Part shown: piece after piece, positions 1 through 15,700 of the stretch
Layout: each line of letters begins with the position of its first letter
Numbering within the stretch: position 1 is the first letter of the stretch
From: a virus
Lineage: Duplodnaviria > Heunggongvirae > Uroviricota > Caudoviricetes
IMG/VR virus record: IMGVR_UViG_2872169409_000009
DNA length: 16,592 nucleotides
Strand: one strand, 5' to 3'
The notes under the pieces: model-generated
The model's database searches: none
Told to the model about the DNA's origin: nothing
What the model saw: the letters and a program-made list of their open reading frames with translations, nothing else
Made by a program: the position numbers and the translations under genes

Positions 1-789
1 TTATTTGATTTCAATTTTGTCCCACTCCCTGCCTCTGTCATCACGATACTGTGATGCCATGGTGTCCGACTTGTGCCCGAGAAGATGTTGAGCAAACTTA
101 TCGCTTATCTGCTTCTCATAGAGTCTTGCAGACAAACTGCGCAACTCGTGAAAGGTAGGTGGATCCCCTTCGAAGGAAAGACCTGATGCTTTTCGTGCGC
201 GCATAAAATACCTTGATACTGTGCCGGATGAAAGCGGTTCACGACGAGTAGATGCAATTATGGTTTCTCCGCCAAGAATCTCTTTGCATTTATCAAGTGT
301 TTCCTTCATTGATATCCCGAGAGCATCAACATGCAATGTTGTAGGGATGGCAATTTTTACGCCTGTTTTGCTTTGCTCGACATAAAGATATCCATCTACG
401 ATATCAGACCACTTCATTTCGCATAAATCACCAACTCGTTGCCCGGTAACAACAGCCAGTTCCATTGCAAGTCTGAGCCAACATGGTGATGATTCTGCTG
501 CTTGATAAATTTTCAGGTATTCGTCAGCCGTAAGTCTTGATCTCCTTACCTCTGATTTTGCTGCGCGAGTGGCAGCGACCGGGTTTGTTGTTATATGGCC
601 TTCAGCTATTGCCTCTCGGAATGCATCGCTCAGTGTTGATCTGATTAACTTGGCTGATGCCGCCTTGCCCTCGTCTATGTATCCATTGAGCATTGCCGCA
701 ATTTCTTTTGTGGTGATGTCTTCAAGTGGAGCATCAGGCAGCCCCCTCCTTATTGCTTTAATTTTGCTCATGTAATTTATGAGTGTCTT
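1..789 (-). pseudogene. int: Lambda-like tyrosine integrase, 5'-truncated: C-terminal 262 codons only, N-terminal ~94 codons replaced by IS911
   Basis: Minus-strand ORF 1..804 translates to ...KTLINYMSKIKAIRRG...HLLGHKSDTMASQYRDDRGREWDKIEIK, near-identical to my recollection of phage lambda Int from about residue 95 to the C-terminus. The first five codons of the track ORF (TTG start, MLTTS) are encoded by the IS911 terminus at 790..804. Stop codon is at 1..3. Confidence 0.9.
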
Positions 790-797
790 TGAAGTGG

Positions 798-1966
<1,169 letters not shown>

Positions 1967-2038
1967 TGGAGCACCTGTGTTGTTCTGAGGTGAGCATATC
2001 ACCTCTGTTCAGGTGGCCAAATTCAGTGTGCCACTTCA

Positions 2039-2284
2039 AAAGCTGAAAATGATGCTCTTCGGCGCAAGCTTGATAATGGTGGTCGGGTGCTCGTCAAAGG
2101 AAAATGCCCTGTGCCATCCTCAGCCGAAACCTCCAGCGCCTCCGGCATGGGCAATGATGCCACCGTCGAACTCTCTCCAGTTGCTGGACGAAACGTTCTC
2201 GGTATCCGGGACGGAATCATCAGCGACCAGACAGCATTGAGAATGCTTCAGGAGTACATCAGGATCCAATGCCTTGGGGGGTAG
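2039..2284 (+). pseudogene. Rz: Rz-like i-spanin, 5'-truncated (C-terminal ~81 codons; N-terminal TM and first coiled coil missing)
   Basis: Plus frame from 2039 reads KAENDALRRKLDNGGRVLVKGKCPVPSSAETSSASGMGNDATVELSPVAGRNVLGIRDGIISDQTALRMLQEYIRIQCLGG*, which aligns with lambda Rz from ..AKAENDALRDDVAAGRRRL.. to the ..EQCR C-terminus. The coding sequence begins abruptly at the IS911 end. Confidence 0.7.
2049..2240 (+). CDS. Rz1: Rz1-like o-spanin lipoprotein embedded in the +1 frame of Rz; annotated start and first codons lost at the IS911 junction, so function uncertain
   Basis: MMLFGASLIMVVGCSSKENALCHPQPKPPAPPAWAMMPPSNSLQ.. has a lipobox (VVGC) and proline-rich core like lambda Rz1 (..MMLCVMMLPLVVVGCTSK..KPPPPPAWIMQPP..). 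The lambda-type MLKLK n-region is replaced by IS-derived sequence; translation would have to start at the internal Met at 2049. Confidence 0.55.
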   Translation: MMLFGASLIMVVGCSSKENALCHPQPKPPAPPAWAMMPPSNSLQLLDETFSVSGTESSATRQH

Positions 2285-2372
2285 CGGTAATTTTACTCAT
2301 TATCCTTCAAATCAGATTCTGTTGTCAGAGGAATGGGGGAAGCTGGATTCGCAAGAGCTTTTTATGGGCAGT

Positions 2373-2882
2373 TTAGCTAAAAAAAGGCAACACGAAGCTA
2401 AAACTACCAACATAAAGTGCTGACCAGCTAGCAGCTGAAATCAGACTCACTGTATACACTTTCACTGGATGAAGTTGCAACATTCCTGCCACCAAAGGAG
2501 CAATGTAACGCAGCACGGCGATAAAGCGCGAAGTGAAAAGTATTGACACAGAGTTATTTTGCAACTGAAGGCGAACCCGTTCTATTGTATTGGAACGGCT
2601 CGATATTATACATGCAAGTTGAGGGATATGCCCAATTATTATACCAAGATGGTAATTAACGATCGTACCGCACCATGCGCCACTCATGACCGTGATTCCA
2701 GCTTCCCATGGTGAAAGAGTCGTCTTGCTGACTGTAATTACAGTGGCCATCATAATTGATGCTGGTGGCAATATCGCCGAAATGAGTAAAGTGGATTTTG
2801 TGAACGCTATTATAAAAAGAAGCCCCCATAGGCGATATGGATGAAGTACAAAATAGTTCATCAAAGCATTTATCCACTCCAT
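2373..2882 (-). CDS. Inner-membrane protein, DedA/YqaA-like (TVP38/SNARE-associated superfamily); prophage moron between the lysis and packaging modules
   Basis: 169-aa hydrophobic ORF with a DedA-type signature FTSRFIAVLRYIAPLVAGM (F..RF......R....AG). ATG at 2882 is preceded by AAGGAAAG (Shine-Dalgarno); the track ORF starts one codon earlier at a TTG. The gene is AT-rich compared with its neighbours and is transcribed opposite to the phage late genes. Confidence 0.55.
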   Translation of the reverse strand: MEWINALMNYFVLHPYRLWGLLFIIAFTKSTLLISAILPPASIMMATVITVSKTTLSPWEAGITVMSGAWCGTIVNYHLGIIIGHIPQLACIISSRSNTIERVRLQLQNNSVSILFTSRFIAVLRYIAPLVAGMLQLHPVKVYTVSLISAASWSALYVGSFSFVLPFFS

Positions 2883-3079
2883 CAATGTCTTTCCTTCTGT
2901 GAATTTTTCTTTGCTATTTAACCGTGATACGACTTAATTTAGGCTTAAACACCTTACATTTACAAGGTACTCCTGTGGGGGGCCCTGCCACGGAGCGTCG
3001 CAGGAGTGAGTGATGAGGAAGAATTAAAGCAACCTATTGTGACAGGCAGCGATAACAGTAAATCACAGGAAGCATAATC

Positions 3080-3844
3080 ATGGCAAAACCGGACTGGGAG
3101 GCCATCGAATCGGCATACCGGGCCGGAGTCCTTAGCCTCCGTGATATAGGCGAGAAATACGGCGTTACAGAAGGGGCTATCAGGAAGAGGGCCAAAAAGC
3201 TTGATTGGGCACGCAGTGGCGGTACGCAGGTTTGCAAAAATGGTACGCAAAAAAGGAAAGTGCGTACCAGCAGAAAGCCTGCCATTACTGGCCTTACACA
3301 AAAAAGTACGCAACTAAAAACAGAATCTACACCGGATACGAAACCGATACGCGGAATGCGTACCGATCCCCCGACTAACCCATTCCAACCCGGTAACCAG
3401 CAGGCATTAAAACACGGTGGTTATGCCCGTCGCCTTCTGCTCAAAGATGAGGTGATAGAGGACGCTAAAGCGTTGACGCTCGAGGACGAATTATTTCGCC
3501 TTCGTGCTAACAACCTTGTCGCTGCAGAGAATATTGGTCGGTGGTTGGTGTCGCTGGAAGATGCTAATGGGGACCAGGAAAGGAAGATGCTGATTGAAAA
3601 TATCAGCGCCGCCGAGAAAGCAATGATGCGCAATACAGTTCGTATTGAGTCCATCGTTGGCACGCTTGCGACGGTAGGAAAAATATTTGCTGATACAGCC
3701 TACCGCAAGGCCGCCACTGATAAGGTGTCTCTGGAGGCTGATCGTCTTCGCCGTGATGCAGGTATTGATGATGGCAATGGAGAGCGTGACCTCAATGACT
3801 TCTACTCTGACATCCAAACCGACGCTGAATCCGGCTTTACGTAG
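3080..3844 (+). CDS. Phage terminase small subunit (N-terminal HTH DNA-binding domain)
   Basis: 254-aa ORF immediately upstream of, and overlapping, the large terminase gene. N-terminus ..GVLSLRDIGEKYGVTEGAIRKRAKKLDW.. is HTH-like. RBS AGGAAG lies 8 nt upstream of ATG 3080. Confidence 0.7.
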   Translation: MAKPDWEAIESAYRAGVLSLRDIGEKYGVTEGAIRKRAKKLDWARSGGTQVCKNGTQKRKVRTSRKPAITGLTQKSTQLKTESTPDTKPIRGMRTDPPTNPFQPGNQQALKHGGYARRLLLKDEVIEDAKALTLEDELFRLRANNLVAAENIGRWLVSLEDANGDQERKMLIENISAAEKAMMRNTVRIESIVGTLATVGKIFADTAYRKAATDKVSLEADRLRRDAGIDDGNGERDLNDFYSDIQTDAESGFT

Positions 3845-4462: not shown

Positions 4463-4553
4463 TAGACTGGCCCCCTGAATCTCCAGACAACCAGTATCAC
4501 TTATTTAAGTGATAGTCTTAATACTAGTTTTTAGACTAGTCATTGGAGAACAG

Positions 4554-4919
4554 ATGATTGATGTCTTAGGGCCGGAGAAACGCAGACGGCGTACCACACA
4601 GGAAAAGATCGCAATTGTTCAGCAGAGCTTTGAACCGGGGATGACGGTCTCCCTCGTTGCCCGGCAACATGGTGTAGCAGCCAGCCAGTTATTTCTCTGG
4701 CGTAAGCAATACCAGGAAGGAAGTCTTACTGCTGTGGCCGCCGGAGAACAGGTTGTTCCTGCCTCTGAACTTGCTGCCGCCATGAAGCAGATTAAAGAAC
4801 TCCAGCGCCTGCTCGGCAAGAAAACGATGGAAAATGAACTCCTCAAAGAAGCCGTTGAATATGGACGGGCAAAAAAGTGGATAGCGCACGCGCCCTTATT
4901 GCCCGGGGATGGGGAGTAA
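4554..4919 (+). CDS. insC: IS2 InsC (OrfA, transposition regulator)
   Basis: [56 protein letters not shown]... matches my recollection of IS2 InsC. RBS GGAGAA lies upstream of ATG 4554. Confidence 0.9.
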
Positions 4920-5782
4920 GCTTAGTCAGCCGTTGTCTCCGGGTGTCGCGTGCGCAGTTGCACGTCATTCTCAGACGAACCGATGACTGGATGGATGGCC
5001 GCCGCAGTCGTCACACTGATGATACGGATGTGCTTCTCCGTATACACCATGTTATCGGAGAGCTGCCCACGTATGGTTATCGTCGGGTATGGGCGCTGCT
5101 TCGCAGACAGGCAGAACTTGATGGTATGCCTGCGATCAATGCCAAACGTGTTTACCGGCTCATGCGCCAGAATGCGCTGTTGCTTGAGCGAAAACCTGCT
5201 GTACCGCCATCGAAACGGGCACATACAGGCAGAGTGGCCGTGAAAGAAAGCAATCAGCGATGGTGCTCTGACGGGTTCGAGTTCTGCTGTGATAACGGAG
5301 AGAGACTGCGTGTCACGTTCGCGCTGGACTGCTGTGATCGTGAGGCACTGCACTGGGCGGGGACTACCGGCGGCTTCAACAGTGAAACAGTACAGGACGT
5401 CATGCTGGGAGCGGTGGAACGCCGCTTCGGCAACGATCTTCCGTCGTCTCCAGTGGAGTGGCTGACGGATAATGGTTCATGCTACCGGGCTAATGAAACA
5501 CGCCAGTTCGCCCGGATGTTGGGACTTGAACCGAAGAACACGGCGGTGCGGAGTCCGGAGAGTAACGGAATAGCAGAGAGCTTCGTGAAAACGATAAAGC
5601 GTGACTACATCAGTATCATGCCCAAACCAGACGGGTTAACGGCAGCAAAGAACCTTGCAGAGGCGTTCGAGCATTATAACGAATGGCATCCGCATAGTGC
5701 GCTGGGTTATCGCTCGCCACGGGAATATCTGCGGCAGCGGGCTTGTAATGGGTTAAGTGATAACAGATGTCTGGAAATATAG
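4877..5782 (+). CDS. insD: IS2 InsD (OrfB, DDE transposase; expressed as the InsCD fusion via -1 frameshift at A6G 4871..4877)
   Basis: 301-aa ORF in the -1 frame relative to insC, with ..[11 protein letters not shown].. and a C-terminal ..[12 protein letters not shown].. motif. An A AAA AAG run sits at the orfA/orfB overlap. Confidence 0.85.
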
Positions 5783-5794
5783 GGGCAAATCCAG

Positions 5795-6527
5795 CAATCA
5801 TCAAACTGTCTTGGATAGAAGCCGCAGTGGATGCGCACAAAACGTTAAATTTCGAACCCAGTGGAAGAAAGCGTATTGGCTTTGACGTGGCTGACAGTGG
5901 TACAGATAAGTGCGCTAACGTTTACCGTCACGGATCCGTTGTTTTCTGGGCCGACGAATGGAAGGCCAAAGAAGATGAATTACTGAAGAGCTGCCAGCGT
6001 ACTTATCAGGCGGCGCTGGAGCGTGAAGCAGATATTGTTTACGACTCTATCGGTGTTGGTGCGTCTGCCGGTGCTAAATTCTCTGAAATTAACGCTGACC
6101 GGAAGAGCGAGAACGCATACGCGCGACGTGTGAATTACCAGAGGTTTAACGCCGGTGCTGGTGTGCATGAGCCAGATGACGAGTACAACGGCATCCCCAA
6201 CAAAGACTTTTTCGCAAATCTTAAGGCTCAGGCATGGTGGCTGACCGTTTCAGAAATACGTTTAACGCCATTAACAACGGAGAACAGTATCCTGTGGATG
6301 AGCTGATCAGCATAGATTCTCGTTGTCCGTTGCTTGAAAAGCTGAAACTGGAACTGACAACACCTCATCGTGATTTCGACCGTAACGGACGTGTGATGGT
6401 CGAAAGTAAAAAAGACCTCGCAAAACGCGAGATACCGTCACCAAACGTTGCTGATGCATTCATTATGGCCTTCGCGCCAATCGATACATCGCTGGATATC
6501 TGGGAACAGCTGGGGAGACAGGCCTGA
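5795..6527 (+). pseudogene. Terminase large subunit, C-terminal (nuclease) fragment; carries an additional frameshift near 6238..6243
   Basis: Removing IS2 and one copy of GCAAT restores the frame from 4462 into ..AAIIKLSWIEAAVDAHKTLNF..IGFDVADSGTDK... Track ORFs 5767..6306 and 6234..6527 are two overlapping frames of the same protein. Stop TGA overlaps the portal ATG (ATGA) at 6524..6527. Confidence 0.8.
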
Positions 6528-9410: not shown

Positions 9411-9453
9411 TGAGGTGTACTGGCAATAGCGGACACTACCATTTGTTCTTTTT

Positions 9454-10272
9454 TTAAGCAGCCATCTGATGATATTTTTCCCTGAAGGCTGCCGGGGAGA
9501 TATTCCCCAGACGAGAGTGACGACGCTGACGATTGTAGAAAATCTCAATGTATTCCCGTATTACTGAGATGGCTTCATCCCGGTTATTAAAACGATAGTG
9601 GCTCAGGCTCTCATTTTTCAGCGTTCCCCAGAAGCTTTCCATCGGAGCGTTGTCGTAACAGTTACCTTTACGCGACATTGATGTTTTCAGACCAGACTGC
9701 TCCTGTATGACCCGGTAATCGTATGCGCAGTACTGTGAACCTCGATCAGAGTGGTGGATTAGCCCGGCAGGTGGGCGCTGGCTCCTGAGCGCCATAAACA
9801 GGGCTTTACCTGTCAGCTCTTTTGTCATGCGCTCTCCCATGGCGTAGCCGACAATTTCACACGTATAAACATCTTTGATGCCAGCGAGGTACAACCATCC
9901 CTCCTGTGTGGCAACATACGTCAGGTCCGCCACCCAGACCTGATTTGGTGCTGTAGGAGCGAACGTCTGGTTCAGCAGATTTGGCGCAACTGGCAGATTG
10001 TGGTTCGGGTTCGTAGTCGCTCTGAACTTGCGTTTCTGCTTACAGCGTAGCCTTAGCTCCTTACGAAGACGTGCCAGTCGGTCACGACCAACGATGATGC
10101 CATTCTCTGCCAGCTCCGTCTGGAGCCGCCGGGTTCCATATGTTTCGCGAGTGCGGATATGTGCCACCTTAATCTCCAGTTTTAGCCGCTCATCACTTTG
10201 TTTTCTGTCTGAGGGTTCATGCTGTACCCAGTTGTAATAACCGCTCCTGGATACACCAAATACCTGACACAT
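9454..10272 (-). CDS. IS600 OrfB transposase (copy 1; -1 frame relative to OrfA)
   Basis: 272-aa DDE transposase (..HHSDRGSQYCA.., ..RKGNCYDNAPMESFWGTLKNE..) matching my recollection of IS600 OrfB. Confidence 0.85.
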   Translation of the reverse strand: MCQVFGVSRSGYYNWVQHEPSDRKQSDERLKLEIKVAHIRTRETYGTRRLQTELAENGIIVGRDRLARLRKELRLRCKQKRKFRATTNPNHNLPVAPNLLNQTFAPTAPNQVWVADLTYVATQEGWLYLAGIKDVYTCEIVGYAMGERMTKELTGKALFMALRSQRPPAGLIHHSDRGSQYCAYDYRVIQEQSGLKTSMSRKGNCYDNAPMESFWGTLKNESLSHYRFNNRDEAISVIREYIEIFYNRQRRHSRLGNISPAAFREKYHQMAA

Positions 10273-10307
10273 CGCTTCAATAGGAAATTGTTGTCGCCAT
10301 TGTTCGA

Positions 10308-10610
10308 TTAACGCGTATTTTTCAGCGACTCCTGTGCAAAATACGCTGTTGCTTTTTTTAATATATCTCGCTCAAGGCGAGCTTCATTTAACGCCTTACG
10401 CAGTTGCAGAATTTCAGATTCCAGTTCAGCCAGCGTGCGGGAACCAGGAGTACCGAGCCCTTTTCTGGCGGCGGTAACCCATTGTCCTAAAGTGCCTTCA
10501 GGAAGAGATAATCGGGAAGCGCCTTCACTGATCGAAAGTTGATTTTCAAGAACCGTTCTGACAGCTTCGGCTTTGAACTCTTTAGAGTAACGTTGGGTTT
10601 TTCTGCTCAT
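10308..10610 (-). CDS. IS600 OrfA (copy 1)
   Basis: MSRKTQRYSKEFKAEAVRTVLENQLSISEGASRLSLPEGTLGQWV... is an IS3-family OrfA; it ends just after an A7G slippery run (minus strand, about 10353..10360). Confidence 0.85.
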   Translation of the reverse strand: MSRKTQRYSKEFKAEAVRTVLENQLSISEGASRLSLPEGTLGQWVTAARKGLGTPGSRTLAELESEILQLRKALNEARLERDILKKATAYFAQESLKNTR

Positions 10611-10674
10611 TATTAGCTCCTTCTGATGCCATTCTATTTCAGGAAGGAGTGTCCGTTAAACTCAGGCTACCTCA

Positions 10675-12804: not shown

Positions 12805-12847
12805 TGAGGTGTACTGGCAATAGCGGACACTACCATTTGTTCTTTTT

Positions 12848-13666
12848 TTAAGCAGCCATCTGATGATATTTTTCCCTGAAGGCTGCCGGGGAGATATTCC
12901 CCAGACGAGAGTGACGACGCTGACGATTGTAGAAAATCTCAATGTATTCCCGTATTACTGAGATGGCTTCATCCCGGTTATTAAAACGATAGTGGCTCAG
13001 GCTCTCATTTTTCAGCGTTCCCCAGAAGCTTTCCATCGGAGCGTTGTCGTAACAGTTACCTTTACGCGACATTGATGTTTTCAGACCAGACTGCTCCTGT
13101 ATGACCCGGTAATCGTATGCGCAGTACTGTGAACCTCGATCAGAGTGGTGGATTAGCCCGGCAGGTGGGCGCTGGCTCCTGAGCGCCATAAACAGGGCTT
13201 TACCTGTCAGCTCTTTTGTCATGCGCTCTCCCATGGCGTAGCCGACAATTTCGCACGTATAAACATCTTTGATGCCAGCGAGGTACAACCATCCCTCCTG
13301 TGTGGCAACATACGTCAGGTCCGCCACCCAGACCTGATTTGGTGCTGTAGGAGCGAACGTCTGGTTCAGTAGATTTGGCGCAACTGGCAGATTGTGGTTC
13401 GGGTTCGTAGTCGCTCTGAACTTGCGTTTCTGCTTACAGCGTAGCCTCAGCTCCTTACGAAGACATGCCAGTCGGTCACGACCAACGATGATGCCATTCT
13501 CTGCCAGCTCCGTCTGGAGCCGCCGGGTTCCATATGTTTCGCGAGTGCGGATATGTGCCACCTTAATCTCCAGTTTTAGCCGTTCATCACTTTGTTTTCT
13601 GTCTGAGGGTTCATGCTGTACCCAGTTGTAATAACCGCTCCTGGATACACCAAATACCTGACACAT
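12848..13666 (-). CDS. IS600 OrfB transposase (copy 2)
   Basis: 272 aa, identical to copy 1 except R67C (..RDRLACLRKEL..). Confidence 0.85.
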   Translation of the reverse strand: MCQVFGVSRSGYYNWVQHEPSDRKQSDERLKLEIKVAHIRTRETYGTRRLQTELAENGIIVGRDRLACLRKELRLRCKQKRKFRATTNPNHNLPVAPNLLNQTFAPTAPNQVWVADLTYVATQEGWLYLAGIKDVYTCEIVGYAMGERMTKELTGKALFMALRSQRPPAGLIHHSDRGSQYCAYDYRVIQEQSGLKTSMSRKGNCYDNAPMESFWGTLKNESLSHYRFNNRDEAISVIREYIEIFYNRQRRHSRLGNISPAAFREKYHQMAA

Positions 13667-13701
13667 CGCTTCAATGGGAAATTGTTGTCGCCATTGTTCG
13701 A

Positions 13702-14004
13702 TTAACGCGTATTTTTCAGCGACTCCTGTGCAAAATACGCTGTTGCTTTTTTTAATATATCTCGCTCAAGGCGAGCTTCATTTAACGCCTTACGCAGTTG
13801 CAGAATTTCAGATTCCAGTTCAGCCAGCGTGCGGGAACCAGGAGTACCGAGCCCTTTTCTGGCGGCGGTAACCCATTGTCCTAAAGTGCCTTCAGGAAGG
13901 AATAATCGGGAAGCGTCTTCACTGATCGAAAGTTGATTTTCAAGAACCGTTCTGACAGCTTCGGCTTTGAACTCTTTAGAGTAACGTCGGGTTTTTCTGC
14001 TCAT
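13702..14004 (-). CDS. IS600 OrfA (copy 2)
   Basis: MSRKTRRYSKEFKAEAVRTVLENQLSISEDASRLFLPEG...; differs from copy 1 at three residues. Confidence 0.85.
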   Translation of the reverse strand: MSRKTRRYSKEFKAEAVRTVLENQLSISEDASRLFLPEGTLGQWVTAARKGLGTPGSRTLAELESEILQLRKALNEARLERDILKKATAYFAQESLKNTR

Positions 14005-14068
14005 TATTAGCTCCTTCTGATGCCATTCTATTTCAGGAAGGAGTGTCCGTTAAACTCAGGCTATCTCA

Positions 14069-15700
14069 ATAAACCGTGCTGTGTAACTGCTGTGGATCAA
14101 ATCTGACCACAACTTTTTTCACTCCGGCATTCATTAATGCCATGTTGTAATAAACGTTTTTCGCGCCTTTAAGGGAGCCGCCAACTTTAAGCGTAAACTC
14201 GCCTTTGCGTGAAACGTTCACCGCCTCGGCAGGCAGTAACAGCATCCGTTTTTGTTCTTCGGTTGGCTTACGCACAATCGTTCTGGCGTATTCACGCTCG
14301 AAAACATCATCAAACGAGAGTTTGCCCCCGCACATTTCTGTTTCACGGCCTGTTCTGGCATTGAACATCGCCACACCTTCGGCAAAGGTTTTCAGAAACA
14401 GCTCTGCATCAACAGCGTGGTCGCCATAGTTATCAGGTTTTGCCTGCGGATTTGGCCCCGTATATGCGCCAGCCAGTGCCGGATGCTTATCAACGTATTC
14501 CTCAAGCCCACCAACACCGAAAGCACGTTCAACAGGTTTTGCCTGGCCCCAGCCTTTACCGGCAACAACGCTTGTCCAGTGCATTTTCGCACCCATCAGT
14601 AAAAACAGTCCTTTTGGATCGTCCTCTTTTACCTTAAAGCGGTAGCGATTGGGCGCGCCTCCCGTCAGCCATTTATTCGCAGCACCACGGGTGTTATCAA
14701 TGGTGATGTGAAAATCCTCCGGGATACTGTAGCGAGTCACAACATCCATGAACGAGAGGCGAATTGAATCAATGTTCTTGCTCACATCGCAGCGCCAGCC
14801 CAGAATTTTTCGGGTTTTCACATCCTGCCAGAACCATGTTTTCGGACGGATCACATCACCGTTAAACCAGCGTACAAAGACGTTATGCAGATAACCGTCG
14901 CCGTTGATCCACTGCATGGCGTCCAGGTGTTCCACAGTTCGCTGCTGTGCCGGTATCAGATGCATCAGTGCATGTTCACCTTCACGACAGGCAACAACCA
15001 TTGCCTCGTCCAGTTGCTGAATCCGGCGAAAGGCCGTGGCACGGGAGGGAATACTCCAGCCATGCTCGCGGACTGCCAGTTCCAGACGCTCATAACATTT
15101 GCGGAAGGCGGGTTTTTCCGGTCGCAGATAATCTGCAATCAGAAACTGCCAGGCATCCTCGTCAAATTCACTTTTGTGAACATTGCGACGGGATGCTCCA
15201 CGTCCATCAACAAGTGCAGCCGCCCAGTCAGGCTTCGCAAACTTCTGTACCTGGTAATACTTGTCCCGCAAAGTGGATGCGCTGACCTGGTAATGCCCTG
15301 CAACGGTCGCAAAAGCCGTTTTCGTTGAAATCCCCTGGTTCAGCATTTCGTCTGTGGCCTGAATTGAGGGCAACCATTTTTCAGCCAGGCTGCGCTGGGA
15401 ATCGCTGGCTTTATCCCATTTGCTCCATAGTACCTCACGATCATAATCATGAGCTTCCAGCGTGGGGCGGGCGATTTCAAAACATCCCTGACTGGTTTTA
15501 AATTTTCCTTGTTGGAGCAAAACTTCAGCTCGAGCAATGTTAGGAAGAGAAGATATATGGTATTCGTAAGCAACCCCTCTAATTCCTTCTCTTCTTCTCT
15601 TGAGCCATCCTTCTCTCTGAGCTCTTTTGTGAACCCCCATTAATGAACCAGGTAAACCAGATAAACCCATGCATTCAATTGCTGATATCCACTCTCTCAT
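14069..15700 (-). pseudogene. A: Mu/D108-like transposase A, 3'-truncated after codon 544 by IS600 (C-terminal domain III missing)
   Basis: 544-aa ORF ..[109 protein letters not shown].. is near-identical to my recollection of phage Mu MuA across the core. The N-terminal ~60 residues diverge, as in D108. The ORF ends ..PQQLHSTVY and its stop codon is provided by the IS600 terminus. Confidence 0.9.

Follow-up and report, generated by a model that had tools for sequence, protein, structure and literature searches.

DedA proteins flip undecaprenyl phosphate (C55-P) and are needed for polymyxin resistance and for modification with 4-amino-4-deoxy-L-arabinose (L-Ara4N; PMC11474028, PMC12893004, PMC6849406). 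In YqjA, YghB and DbcA, the residues E39, D51, R130 and R136 are needed for function (PMC6849406). YqjA S52 is functionally important as well, and the charged residues take a central position in the modelled dimer (bioRxiv 10.64898/2026.09.20.752871). For UptA of Bacillus subtilis, E32 was modelled as hydrogen-bonded to R118 and W146, and all three residues contribute to C55-P binding (PMC11474028). A second described system is the bor slot of lambdoid phages. In lambda, 32 nt separate the end of Rz from the start of bor, which is encoded on the other strand; borD of the prophage DLP12 has the same slot and orientation, and borD is an accepted gene of the PhoP regulon (PMC5740661). Here, a gene was analyzed that joins features of both systems. 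It is located at positions 2373 to 2882 of a 16,592 nt stretch of Caudoviricetes DNA (IMG/VR record IMGVR_UViG_2872169409_000009; this whole stretch is called the window throughout) and is almost certainly a DedA-family moron.

The gene is encoded on the minus strand and, together with its upstream signals, comprises the following features.

2373..2882, minus strand: coding sequence of a 169-aa DedA/VTT-family protein, defined by the list of open reading frames (ORFs), Pfam and the start of the homologues.
2891..2897, minus strand: Shine-Dalgarno-like sequence GAAGGAA, visible in the letters 8 nt ahead of the ATG.
2916..2921, minus strand: putative -10 hexamer TTAAAT, a prediction from upstream alignments and a motif scan.
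2935..2951, minus strand: degenerate PhoP-box-like direct repeat TGTTTA-AGCCT-AAATTA.
2362..2953, minus strand: conserved mobile unit of a promoter region of ~70 nt, the coding sequence and ~12 nt downstream, delimited in a three-way DNA alignment.

The coding sequence starts with ATG at 2882-2880 and ends with TAA at 2375-2373. In the ORF list it extends over 2373..2885, as TTG at 2885-2883 is an alternative start; RefSeq uses this TTG and obtains 170 aa, and the homologues begin at the ATG. The product is hydrophobic (grand average of hydropathy, GRAVY, 0.87) with a net charge of +6, and contains no Asp and three non-conserved Glu. It matches Pfam PF09335 (VTT_dom, formerly SNARE_assoc) over residues 41-161 with E=9.2e-14 and 52.4 bits, compared with a gathering score of 33.9. 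The same domain was present in 21 of 21 homologues from a word-indexed search, and hhalign to YqjA gave 97% probability. A preliminary description, made from the letters of the window alone, had proposed a multi-pass membrane protein of the DedA family, and these searches bear it out; the ORF is intact, and with a Pfam match above the gathering score the refuting outcome named there, a missing family match, did not occur. The C-terminal DedA signature that it had reported is present, but its spacers were transposed: the motif reads F..RF....R......AG and not F..RF......R....AG. Its label 'YqaA-like' had to be abandoned, since YqaA reached 8.7 bits with the subfamily profile compared with 60.8 bits for YabI, the other K-12 paralogues being DedA (58.7), YqjA (57.8) and YghB (43.7). 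In databases, the gene product is already labeled 'DedA family protein' (RefSeq WP_011069285.1), and further source names are 'VTT domain-containing protein' and 'putative membrane-associated protein'. The exact 169-aa protein, or its 170-aa version from the TTG, is found on at least 1000 public contigs, mainly of Shigella flexneri, with some of S. sonnei, S. dysenteriae and Escherichia coli.

With regard to the residues required in the characterized proteins, MAFFT and hhalign agree in aligning YqjA E39, G50, D51 and S52 to K29, P40, A41 and S42, and R130 and R136 to R119 and R125. The arginine pair of the second re-entrant region (R130/R136 in YqjA, R112/R118 in UptA) is therefore present, and in place of the membrane-embedded acidic pair of the first re-entrant region (YqjA E39 and D51), which marks the characterized YqjA/YghB/DbcA type, the protein has K29 and A41. 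Across 56 full-length genomic copies, K29-S30-T31, S35, L38-P39-P40-A41-S42, R119, F120, R125, P129, G133 and W153 are conserved to at least 95%, and no column of this alignment is acidic in 50% or more of the copies. The resulting subfamily signature is F-x-K-S-T...L-P-P-A-S. Among the best 150 profile matches, Lys in the E39 column is exclusive to the subfamily, and the outgroups have Glu. In the D51 column the next relatives often have S, A, T or V, as does E. coli YabI (LESL...LPGT). Because these relatives keep the Glu but often lose the Asp, the absent Asp can be regarded as a feature of the YabI-like clade, and the change from Glu to Lys as the subfamily's own fixed change. Judged from the alignments, the Arg, Ser and Trp partners are all kept in the subfamily while an amine takes the place of the carboxylate. 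The lack of acidic residues in the first membrane region, and the divergent variant that the preliminary description had suspected from it, were thus recovered in an alignment of the whole subfamily, in which the substitutions are invariant and under purifying selection.

YabI (254 aa), which aligned to the profile from residue 2, is the K-12 paralogue that most resembles the window protein. Both have a short N-terminus, an E/K-S-x...L-P-x-x re-entrant motif, a non-acidic residue at the position of YqjA D51, the RF....R......AG motif and the Trp, and some sources call subfamily members 'YabI'. YabI differs in having Glu (LESL) where the window protein has Lys (TKST), PGT instead of PPA and ~85 more residues at the C-terminus, and it is a core E. 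coli gene that is neither phage-borne nor linked to mgtE. With YqjA/YghB and UptA, the window protein shares the VTT core, both arginines, the equivalent of Ser52 and the Trp, and its predicted structure suggests a similar pattern of re-entrant helix-turn-helix segments, each with a long helix behind it. However, E39 and D51 are essential in YqjA/YghB and E32 pairs with R118 in UptA, whereas K29 and A41 occupy these positions here, and both the C-terminal helix of YqjA/YghB (~50 aa) and their N-terminal insert of ~10 residues are missing.

An AlphaFold2 (AF2) model based on an alignment of 58 sequences was all-helical, with a predicted local distance difference test (pLDDT) score of 85 and a predicted template modelling (pTM) score of 0.79. 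It replaced a model from a shallower alignment of 20 sequences, which had reached a pLDDT of 54. Helix breaks were predicted at residues 36-40 (near P39-P40) and 119-121 (R119-F120), and each is followed by a long helix (58-84 and 139-168). In the model, this layout of helix, break, helix and long helix would fit the expected DedA pattern with two re-entrant hairpins. A structure search of BFVD returned VTT proteins of giant viruses as best matches, which were not significant.

Based on sequence comparison, the protein belongs to a small and narrow Enterobacterales subfamily that is nearest to YabI and not to YqaA. The word-indexed search found 21 relatives only, and a profile search of 1.84 billion representatives gave 12 matches at E<1e-30, followed by a gap to ~1e-19. 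When one genome per species was scanned, 64 loci were obtained. Identity to the window protein is 100% in Shigella and E. coli, 57-78% in Citrobacter, 72% in Kosakonia, 46-53% in ~30 Enterobacter species and Lelliottia, 43% in Hafnia, 37-43% in Arsenophonus and 36-38% in Morganella; the copies of Enterobacter hormaechei (49-50%) carry KST...LPPAS. The closest outgroups are DedA proteins of 200-250 aa and DedA-PAP2-LssY_C fusions of 650-700 aa with the DedA domain at the N-terminus (P0040, P0043 and ~90 others), an architecture that suggests a coupled flipping and dephosphorylation of lipid-phosphate. Among the copies of the Shigella prophage, of a Citrobacter youngae prophage and of two Citrobacter chromosomes, the ratio of non-synonymous to synonymous substitutions (dN/dS) was 0.14-0.24, which argues that the protein is maintained and not decaying. 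For the C. amalonaticus copy, synonymous sites are saturated (dS 1.4-1.8).

PhoPQ is a sensor of low magnesium and antimicrobial peptides, and MgrB acts as inhibitor of PhoQ. A PhoP-regulon promoter was expected to carry the PhoP box (T/G)GTTTA-N5-(T/G)GTTTA as a direct repeat, 11-13 nt ahead of the -10; for the loose composite pattern, the background amounts to 0.2 per kb. In PhoP-activated Salmonella promoters of architecture I/II, the box is located 12 nt upstream of the -10 (PMC3335776). The 70 nt upstream of the Citrobacter genes harbor a direct repeat TGTT(T/G)A-N5-GATTGA exactly 12 nt before TTAAAT; this holds for the phage copy of C. youngae and for two chromosomal copies, one of which (C. 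amalonaticus) has an otherwise diverged upstream region. The box of the C. youngae phage copy, TGTTTA-GGCTC-GATTGA, has 2 mismatches. Most orthologues of Enterobacter and Lelliottia possess a proximal repeat (T/C)GTTGA-N5-TATTTA, 12 nt before TTAAAT or TCTAAT, and those with an upstream box have, ~37 nt further upstream of this repeat, a distal perfect PhoP box (mostly TGTTTA-AGAAC-GGTTTA). When the 64 loci (1.57 Mb) were scanned on both strands, 22 perfect PhoP boxes were detected, and 22 of 22 are situated ~103 nt upstream of the dedA-like gene. Most of these 22 loci have the second box 12 nt before the -10 as well, a layout that agrees with architectures I and II. Of the two boxes, only the proximal one is left in the phage and Citrobacter copies. 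In two Kosakonia loci (72% identical copies), an extended -10-like element, TGGTATAAA, and no PhoP box was observed ~30-60 nt upstream of the gene; the Kosakonia gene seems, from this upstream region, to have been rewired to a different promoter.

The chromosomal genes further share their neighborhood with magnesium transport. The gene order is mgtE, dedA-like gene and a short-chain dehydrogenase/reductase (SDR) gene in most of ~28 Enterobacter and Lelliottia loci, a few of them having no SDR match. The dedA-like gene is divergent from mgtE, and the SDR gene is convergent in most cases. Linkage to mgtE was also found in Hafnia and Arsenophonus. In E. hormaechei, an M-box Mg2+ riboswitch (RF00380, 113 bits) precedes mgtE. 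As mgtE shares its promoter region at this locus (L033, 5672-5841 on the minus strand and 5866-5960) with the divergent dedA-like gene and two PhoP boxes, Mg2+ control through PhoP and through a riboswitch meets in one intergenic region of 390 nt. In a colistin-resistant E. hormaechei ST89 strain with deleted mgrB, transcripts of the consecutive genes N5F16_08425 (MgtE), N5F16_08430 (DedA family) and N5F16_08435 (SDR) were increased 19.6-fold, 23.1-fold and 3.1-fold, respectively (PMC10434160). By synteny, N5F16_08430 is the chromosomal orthologue of the subfamily, an orthology taken from gene order only; it is a chromosomal gene with two PhoP boxes, one of them perfect, whereas the window gene lies on a prophage with a single, degraded box in front of it. 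Taken together, these data indicate that the subfamily is probably regulated by PhoP in Enterobacter.

Several of these signals recur in the phage-borne copies. The putative -10 hexamer TTAAAT is conserved in all Citrobacter, Shigella and most Enterobacter copies, and at the position of the Shine-Dalgarno sequence the Citrobacter copies have AGGAG or TGGAG. In the window and in all Shigella and E. coli copies, the PhoP-like box contains a 1-nt insertion and G-to-A changes, and its first half-site is intact. Given this degradation and a spacing of 13 nt to the -10, it is uncertain and, as judged from the promoter sequence, somewhat doubtful whether PhoP controls the window copy. For the direct repeat of the degenerate window copy, a site for ArcA, PmrA or another OmpR-family regulator was considered as well; the perfect PhoP boxes and the transcriptome of the mgrB mutant favored PhoP. 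The slot itself provides a precedent. The borD gene of DLP12 (L086, 3947-3963, minus strand) has a perfect PhoP box, TGTTTA-GGGTT-TGTTTA, 12 nt before the -10-like hexamer TACGAT, so that the bor slot of lambdoid prophages already houses a PhoP-activated envelope gene, and the phage copy of C. youngae, with its 12-nt distance between box and -10, matches borD in promoter architecture. The window gene resembles bor in slot, in orientation and in coding for a small envelope protein, but the products differ: the 97-aa lipoprotein Bor of the outer membrane has neither sequence nor fold in common with the polytopic inner-membrane DedA protein encoded here. RNA folding of both intergenic flanks on both strands gave z-scores between -0.8 and +1.2 and no structure, a GC-rich inverted repeat at ~2962-3000 folded no better than shuffled sequences, and an Rfam scan of the whole window gave no match.

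The window is part of a defective lambdoid prophage of S. flexneri and a few E. coli that is riddled with insertion sequence (IS) elements. Around the gene, the following features were identified.

1-804, minus strand: integrase fragment.
798-2038: IS3-family element (HTH_Tnp_1 and rve), which abuts the integrase fragment and removed the N-terminus of Rz.
2039..2284, plus strand: C-terminal remnant of the spanin Rz with embedded Rz1 (Pfam PF03245, PF06085; the remnants are also delimited as 2013-2284).
2275..3072: insert segment of 798 nt between the lysis and packaging modules, consisting of the moron insert and unique flanks (blastn break-points against the loci L103 and L104, and empty-site annotation).
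3080..3844, plus strand: ORF of 254 aa at the position of the small terminase, the first packaging gene (ORF list; no Pfam match).
Downstream of this ORF: gene of the Terminase_3 large subunit (TerL), split by IS2 at 4463-5795, and then the portal gene.

The dedA-like gene thus runs against the late operon, with the Rz/Rz1 remnant on one side and the small-terminase-like (TerS) ORF on the other, in the place and orientation of lambda bor. Its GC content is 0.426 (0.40 at third codon positions, GC3), compared with 0.51 (GC3 0.50) for TerS, 0.54 (GC3 0.59) for the portal gene and 0.503 for the window. By blastn break-points, window 2275-3072 faces a 208-nt spacer in a related Klebsiella phage. 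Within this insert, 2362-2953 is alignable with the Citrobacter phage and chromosomal copies, and the homology ends abruptly at either side. Empty sites were found in Klebsiella phage ST16-OXA48phi5.2 and in a prophage of E. coli 8178, which share Rz and/or TerS-TerL and have just a short forward ORF in between. The adjacent TerS module occurs in 207 E. coli genomes, in at least 112 of them with a coverage of at least 80%, compared with 6 of 5426 complete E. coli genomes for the dedA-like gene. The gene is therefore a true moron, that is, an extra gene between two conserved phage modules that is missing from similar phages. The preliminary description had read it as an AT-richer cargo gene in the bor slot; this view stands, and the empty sites show that the cargo was acquired independently.

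A second, unrelated prophage, that of C. youngae with a lambda-type Nu1-like/GpA terminase and a GH19 endolysin, has a copy with 78% identity. There, the gene is antisense and placed directly after the lysis genes, followed by three more small genes and then the terminase. In IMG/VR, the gene was found on 14 contigs of the Shigella type and on the C. youngae contig. A further IMG/VR contig (L102) was considered as third phage context and rejected, as a Mu-like prophage ends there and the dinI-dedA locus next to it is chromosomal. A tblastn search of GenBank phages yielded only distant DedA matches with 24-30% identity, several of which are probably host DNA in contigs labeled as phage, and the gene is for this reason taken to be absent from the sequenced free phages of that collection.

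Some observations on the surrounding prophages were made alongside. Most genomes list the product of the ORF at 3080-3844 as 'hypothetical protein', whereas a few Klebsiella phages, such as GZ7 and ST405-OXA48phi1.2, have it as 'terminase small subunit'. The 'lysis protein' is intact in the prophage of E. coli FDAARGOS_943, and colinearity with it begins at window position 2039. In this prophage, otherwise 99.7% identical, IS2 in TerL occupies 13999-15331, compared with 4463-5795 in the window; the sites are 220 bp apart, and the same gene has therefore been inactivated twice independently. Window 9411-10674 and 12805-14004 are missing from the FDAARGOS_943 prophage; each contains the same pair of ORFs (272 aa and 100 aa), and they look like two copies of another IS. 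In the C. youngae prophage (L020, 5793-6002, minus strand), just upstream of the dedA-like gene, an 80-aa stretch shares 60% identity with the RrrD-type lysozyme that the Shigella/E. coli prophage encodes. Its working endolysin being GH19, this stretch may be the scar of a recombination between lysis cassettes.

Overall, we consider it reasonably likely that the gene is a PhoP-linked, self-contained lysogenic-conversion cassette that encodes an inner-membrane DedA variant of the YabI clade. The cassette would consist of the promoter region, the Shine-Dalgarno sequence and the 169-aa inner-membrane protein in the bor slot. The ancestral copy would have been chromosomal, within the PhoPQ and low-Mg2+ response, and phages would have captured the gene along with its promoter-proximal PhoP box and would express it from the prophage. 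The protein would bind or flip a lipid with a phosphate head group in a cavity lined by K29, R119 and R125, with S42 and W153 as further parts of the site. As it has no conserved carboxylate, it would dispense with the proton-linked step that has been suggested for proteins of the YqjA type. C55-P is the favored substrate, with an anionic phospholipid as alternative, because DedA proteins are C55-P flippases, PhoPQ activation raises the demand for recycling of the carrier lipid and the nearest outgroups are fused to PAP2 phosphatases; a mechanism based on C55-P nevertheless remains tentative. Such an activity would aid PhoP-driven envelope remodelling, e.g. by recycling the carrier lipid of L-Ara4N or O-antigen. 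Under host-like stress, lysogens would then have more of this capacity at their disposal. A more far-reaching proposal, in which the KST/PPAS subfamily would be a carboxylate-lacking lipid flippase or lipid-phosphate binder independent of proton coupling, induced by PhoPQ together with mgtE at low Mg2+ or under attack by cationic peptides, captured by phages with a PhoP-responsive promoter, and making Shigella and Citrobacter lysogens fitter inside the host through a higher capacity for envelope remodelling (e.g. C55-P recycling for L-Ara4N or O-antigen), appears unlikely as a whole.

A number of results weigh against the cassette and its transport function. E39 is essential in YqjA and YghB (PMC6849406), so that a Lys at this position could mean loss of transport. 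The protein missed the cut-offs of the NCBIfam equivalog models NF008102, NF052604 and NF052605 (31 vs 236 bits for YghB-type, PRK10847; 19.9 vs 250 for UptA; 16.3 vs 300). As it is far under the YghB-type and UptA thresholds, it was filed as a distinct variant in the YabI-like clade and not as orthologue of a characterized protein. Neither a sequence search of the PDB nor Foldseek found a solved DedA structure for comparison with the AF2 model. Concerning expression, the PhoP-like box of the window copy has 3 mismatches in addition to its 13-nt spacing, a scan of 2000-3300 returned 3 promoter-like sites vs 1.8 expected, none of which precedes the gene, and the region yielded neither a consensus sigma-70 promoter for the gene nor an intrinsic terminator. 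Of the expression signals proposed in the preliminary description, the Shine-Dalgarno sequence was confirmed. The upstream scan found no PhoP boxes for the copies of Kosakonia, Hafnia, Morganella and Arsenophonus. N5F16_08430 was identified through synteny and product names.

Two other explanations survive about equally well, and both are improbable. In the first, the protein would be a non-transporting, regulatory or dominant-negative DedA: the Lys would block cycling, and the protein would heterodimerize with a host DedA or sequester lipid, acting for the phage as a superinfection-exclusion or envelope-modulating factor. Small inner-membrane proteins in the bor-type slot are often exclusion or conversion factors, and K29 is invariant in the subfamily. 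The explanation also fits the requirement for both E39 and D51 in YqjA and YghB (PMC6849406) and the modelled YqjA dimer, whose interface is formed by the re-entrant hairpins bearing these residues (bioRxiv 10.64898/2026.09.20.752871). However, R119, R125, S42 and W153 are strictly conserved, as expected of an active site, and the D51 equivalent is already non-acidic in YabI and many outgroup DedA proteins. Furthermore, most members are chromosomal, non-phage genes co-regulated with mgtE, which speaks for a housekeeping role under stress and not for one against phages, and the window protein matched 0 PADLOC-DB families of anti-phage defence at E up to 1.

In the second, the protein would be an accessory of Mg2+ homeostasis: it would work with MgtE to acquire Mg2+ or to adapt the membrane, much as has been suggested for XdfA of Xanthomonas, and no carrier lipid would be involved. 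The linkage to mgtE in Enterobacter, Lelliottia, Hafnia and Arsenophonus, retained despite differing orientations, is consistent with this, as are the divergent PhoP-box region common to the gene and the M-box-controlled mgtE and the induction of both genes together; XdfA and DedA proteins of Klebsiella pneumoniae have been tied to the homeostasis of Mg2+ or divalent cations (PMC10470534, PMC10846249). On the other hand, the protein offers no conserved acidic residue for Mg2+ coordination and its core is net positive, the phage and Citrobacter copies travel without mgtE, and the rescue of DedA mutants by divalent cations is usually taken as an indirect envelope effect. Least probable is a silent passenger of the Shigella prophage that is heading to decay and is intact merely through recent acquisition in a clonal lineage: the prophage is defective (the IS3-family element cuts Rz and the integrase, IS2 splits TerL), the PhoP box is degraded compared with the Citrobacter copies, promoter and terminator consensus are missing, and the Shigella/E. 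coli copies are 99-100% identical, so that selection within the lineage is not measurable, but the ORF is intact on the at least 1000 contigs although its neighbors are disrupted, dN/dS is 0.24 vs the C. youngae phage copy, every subfamily-invariant residue is retained, and the -10 hexamer, the Shine-Dalgarno sequence and the first half-site have persisted.

The annotation as 'DedA family protein' was known before, and nothing in the cassette is categorically new. New are the K-for-E subfamily nearest to YabI, the PhoP/mgtE/M-box setting of its orthologues and the capture by two types of prophage, for which no account was found in the searchable literature. In the same literature, no paper mentions the accession WP_011069285, and nothing relevant was found on DedA proteins and prophages.

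The role of the conserved Glu/Asp as compared with that of the Arg pair in DedA proteins is still under investigation, and a subfamily with Lys in place of Glu that is conserved, under purifying selection and devoid of a conserved acidic residue represents a natural experiment on whether the DedA carboxylate serves coupling or structure. The PhoP boxes, the region shared with an M-box-controlled mgtE and the 23-fold induction in an mgrB mutant provide a physiological setting for this subfamily, and make it a further candidate for the network through which colistin heteroresistance depends on PhoPQ in the Enterobacter cloacae complex. With a PhoP-type envelope gene, the bor slot would have a second example after borD, and the gene described here is a plausible new PhoPQ-regulon and conversion gene.

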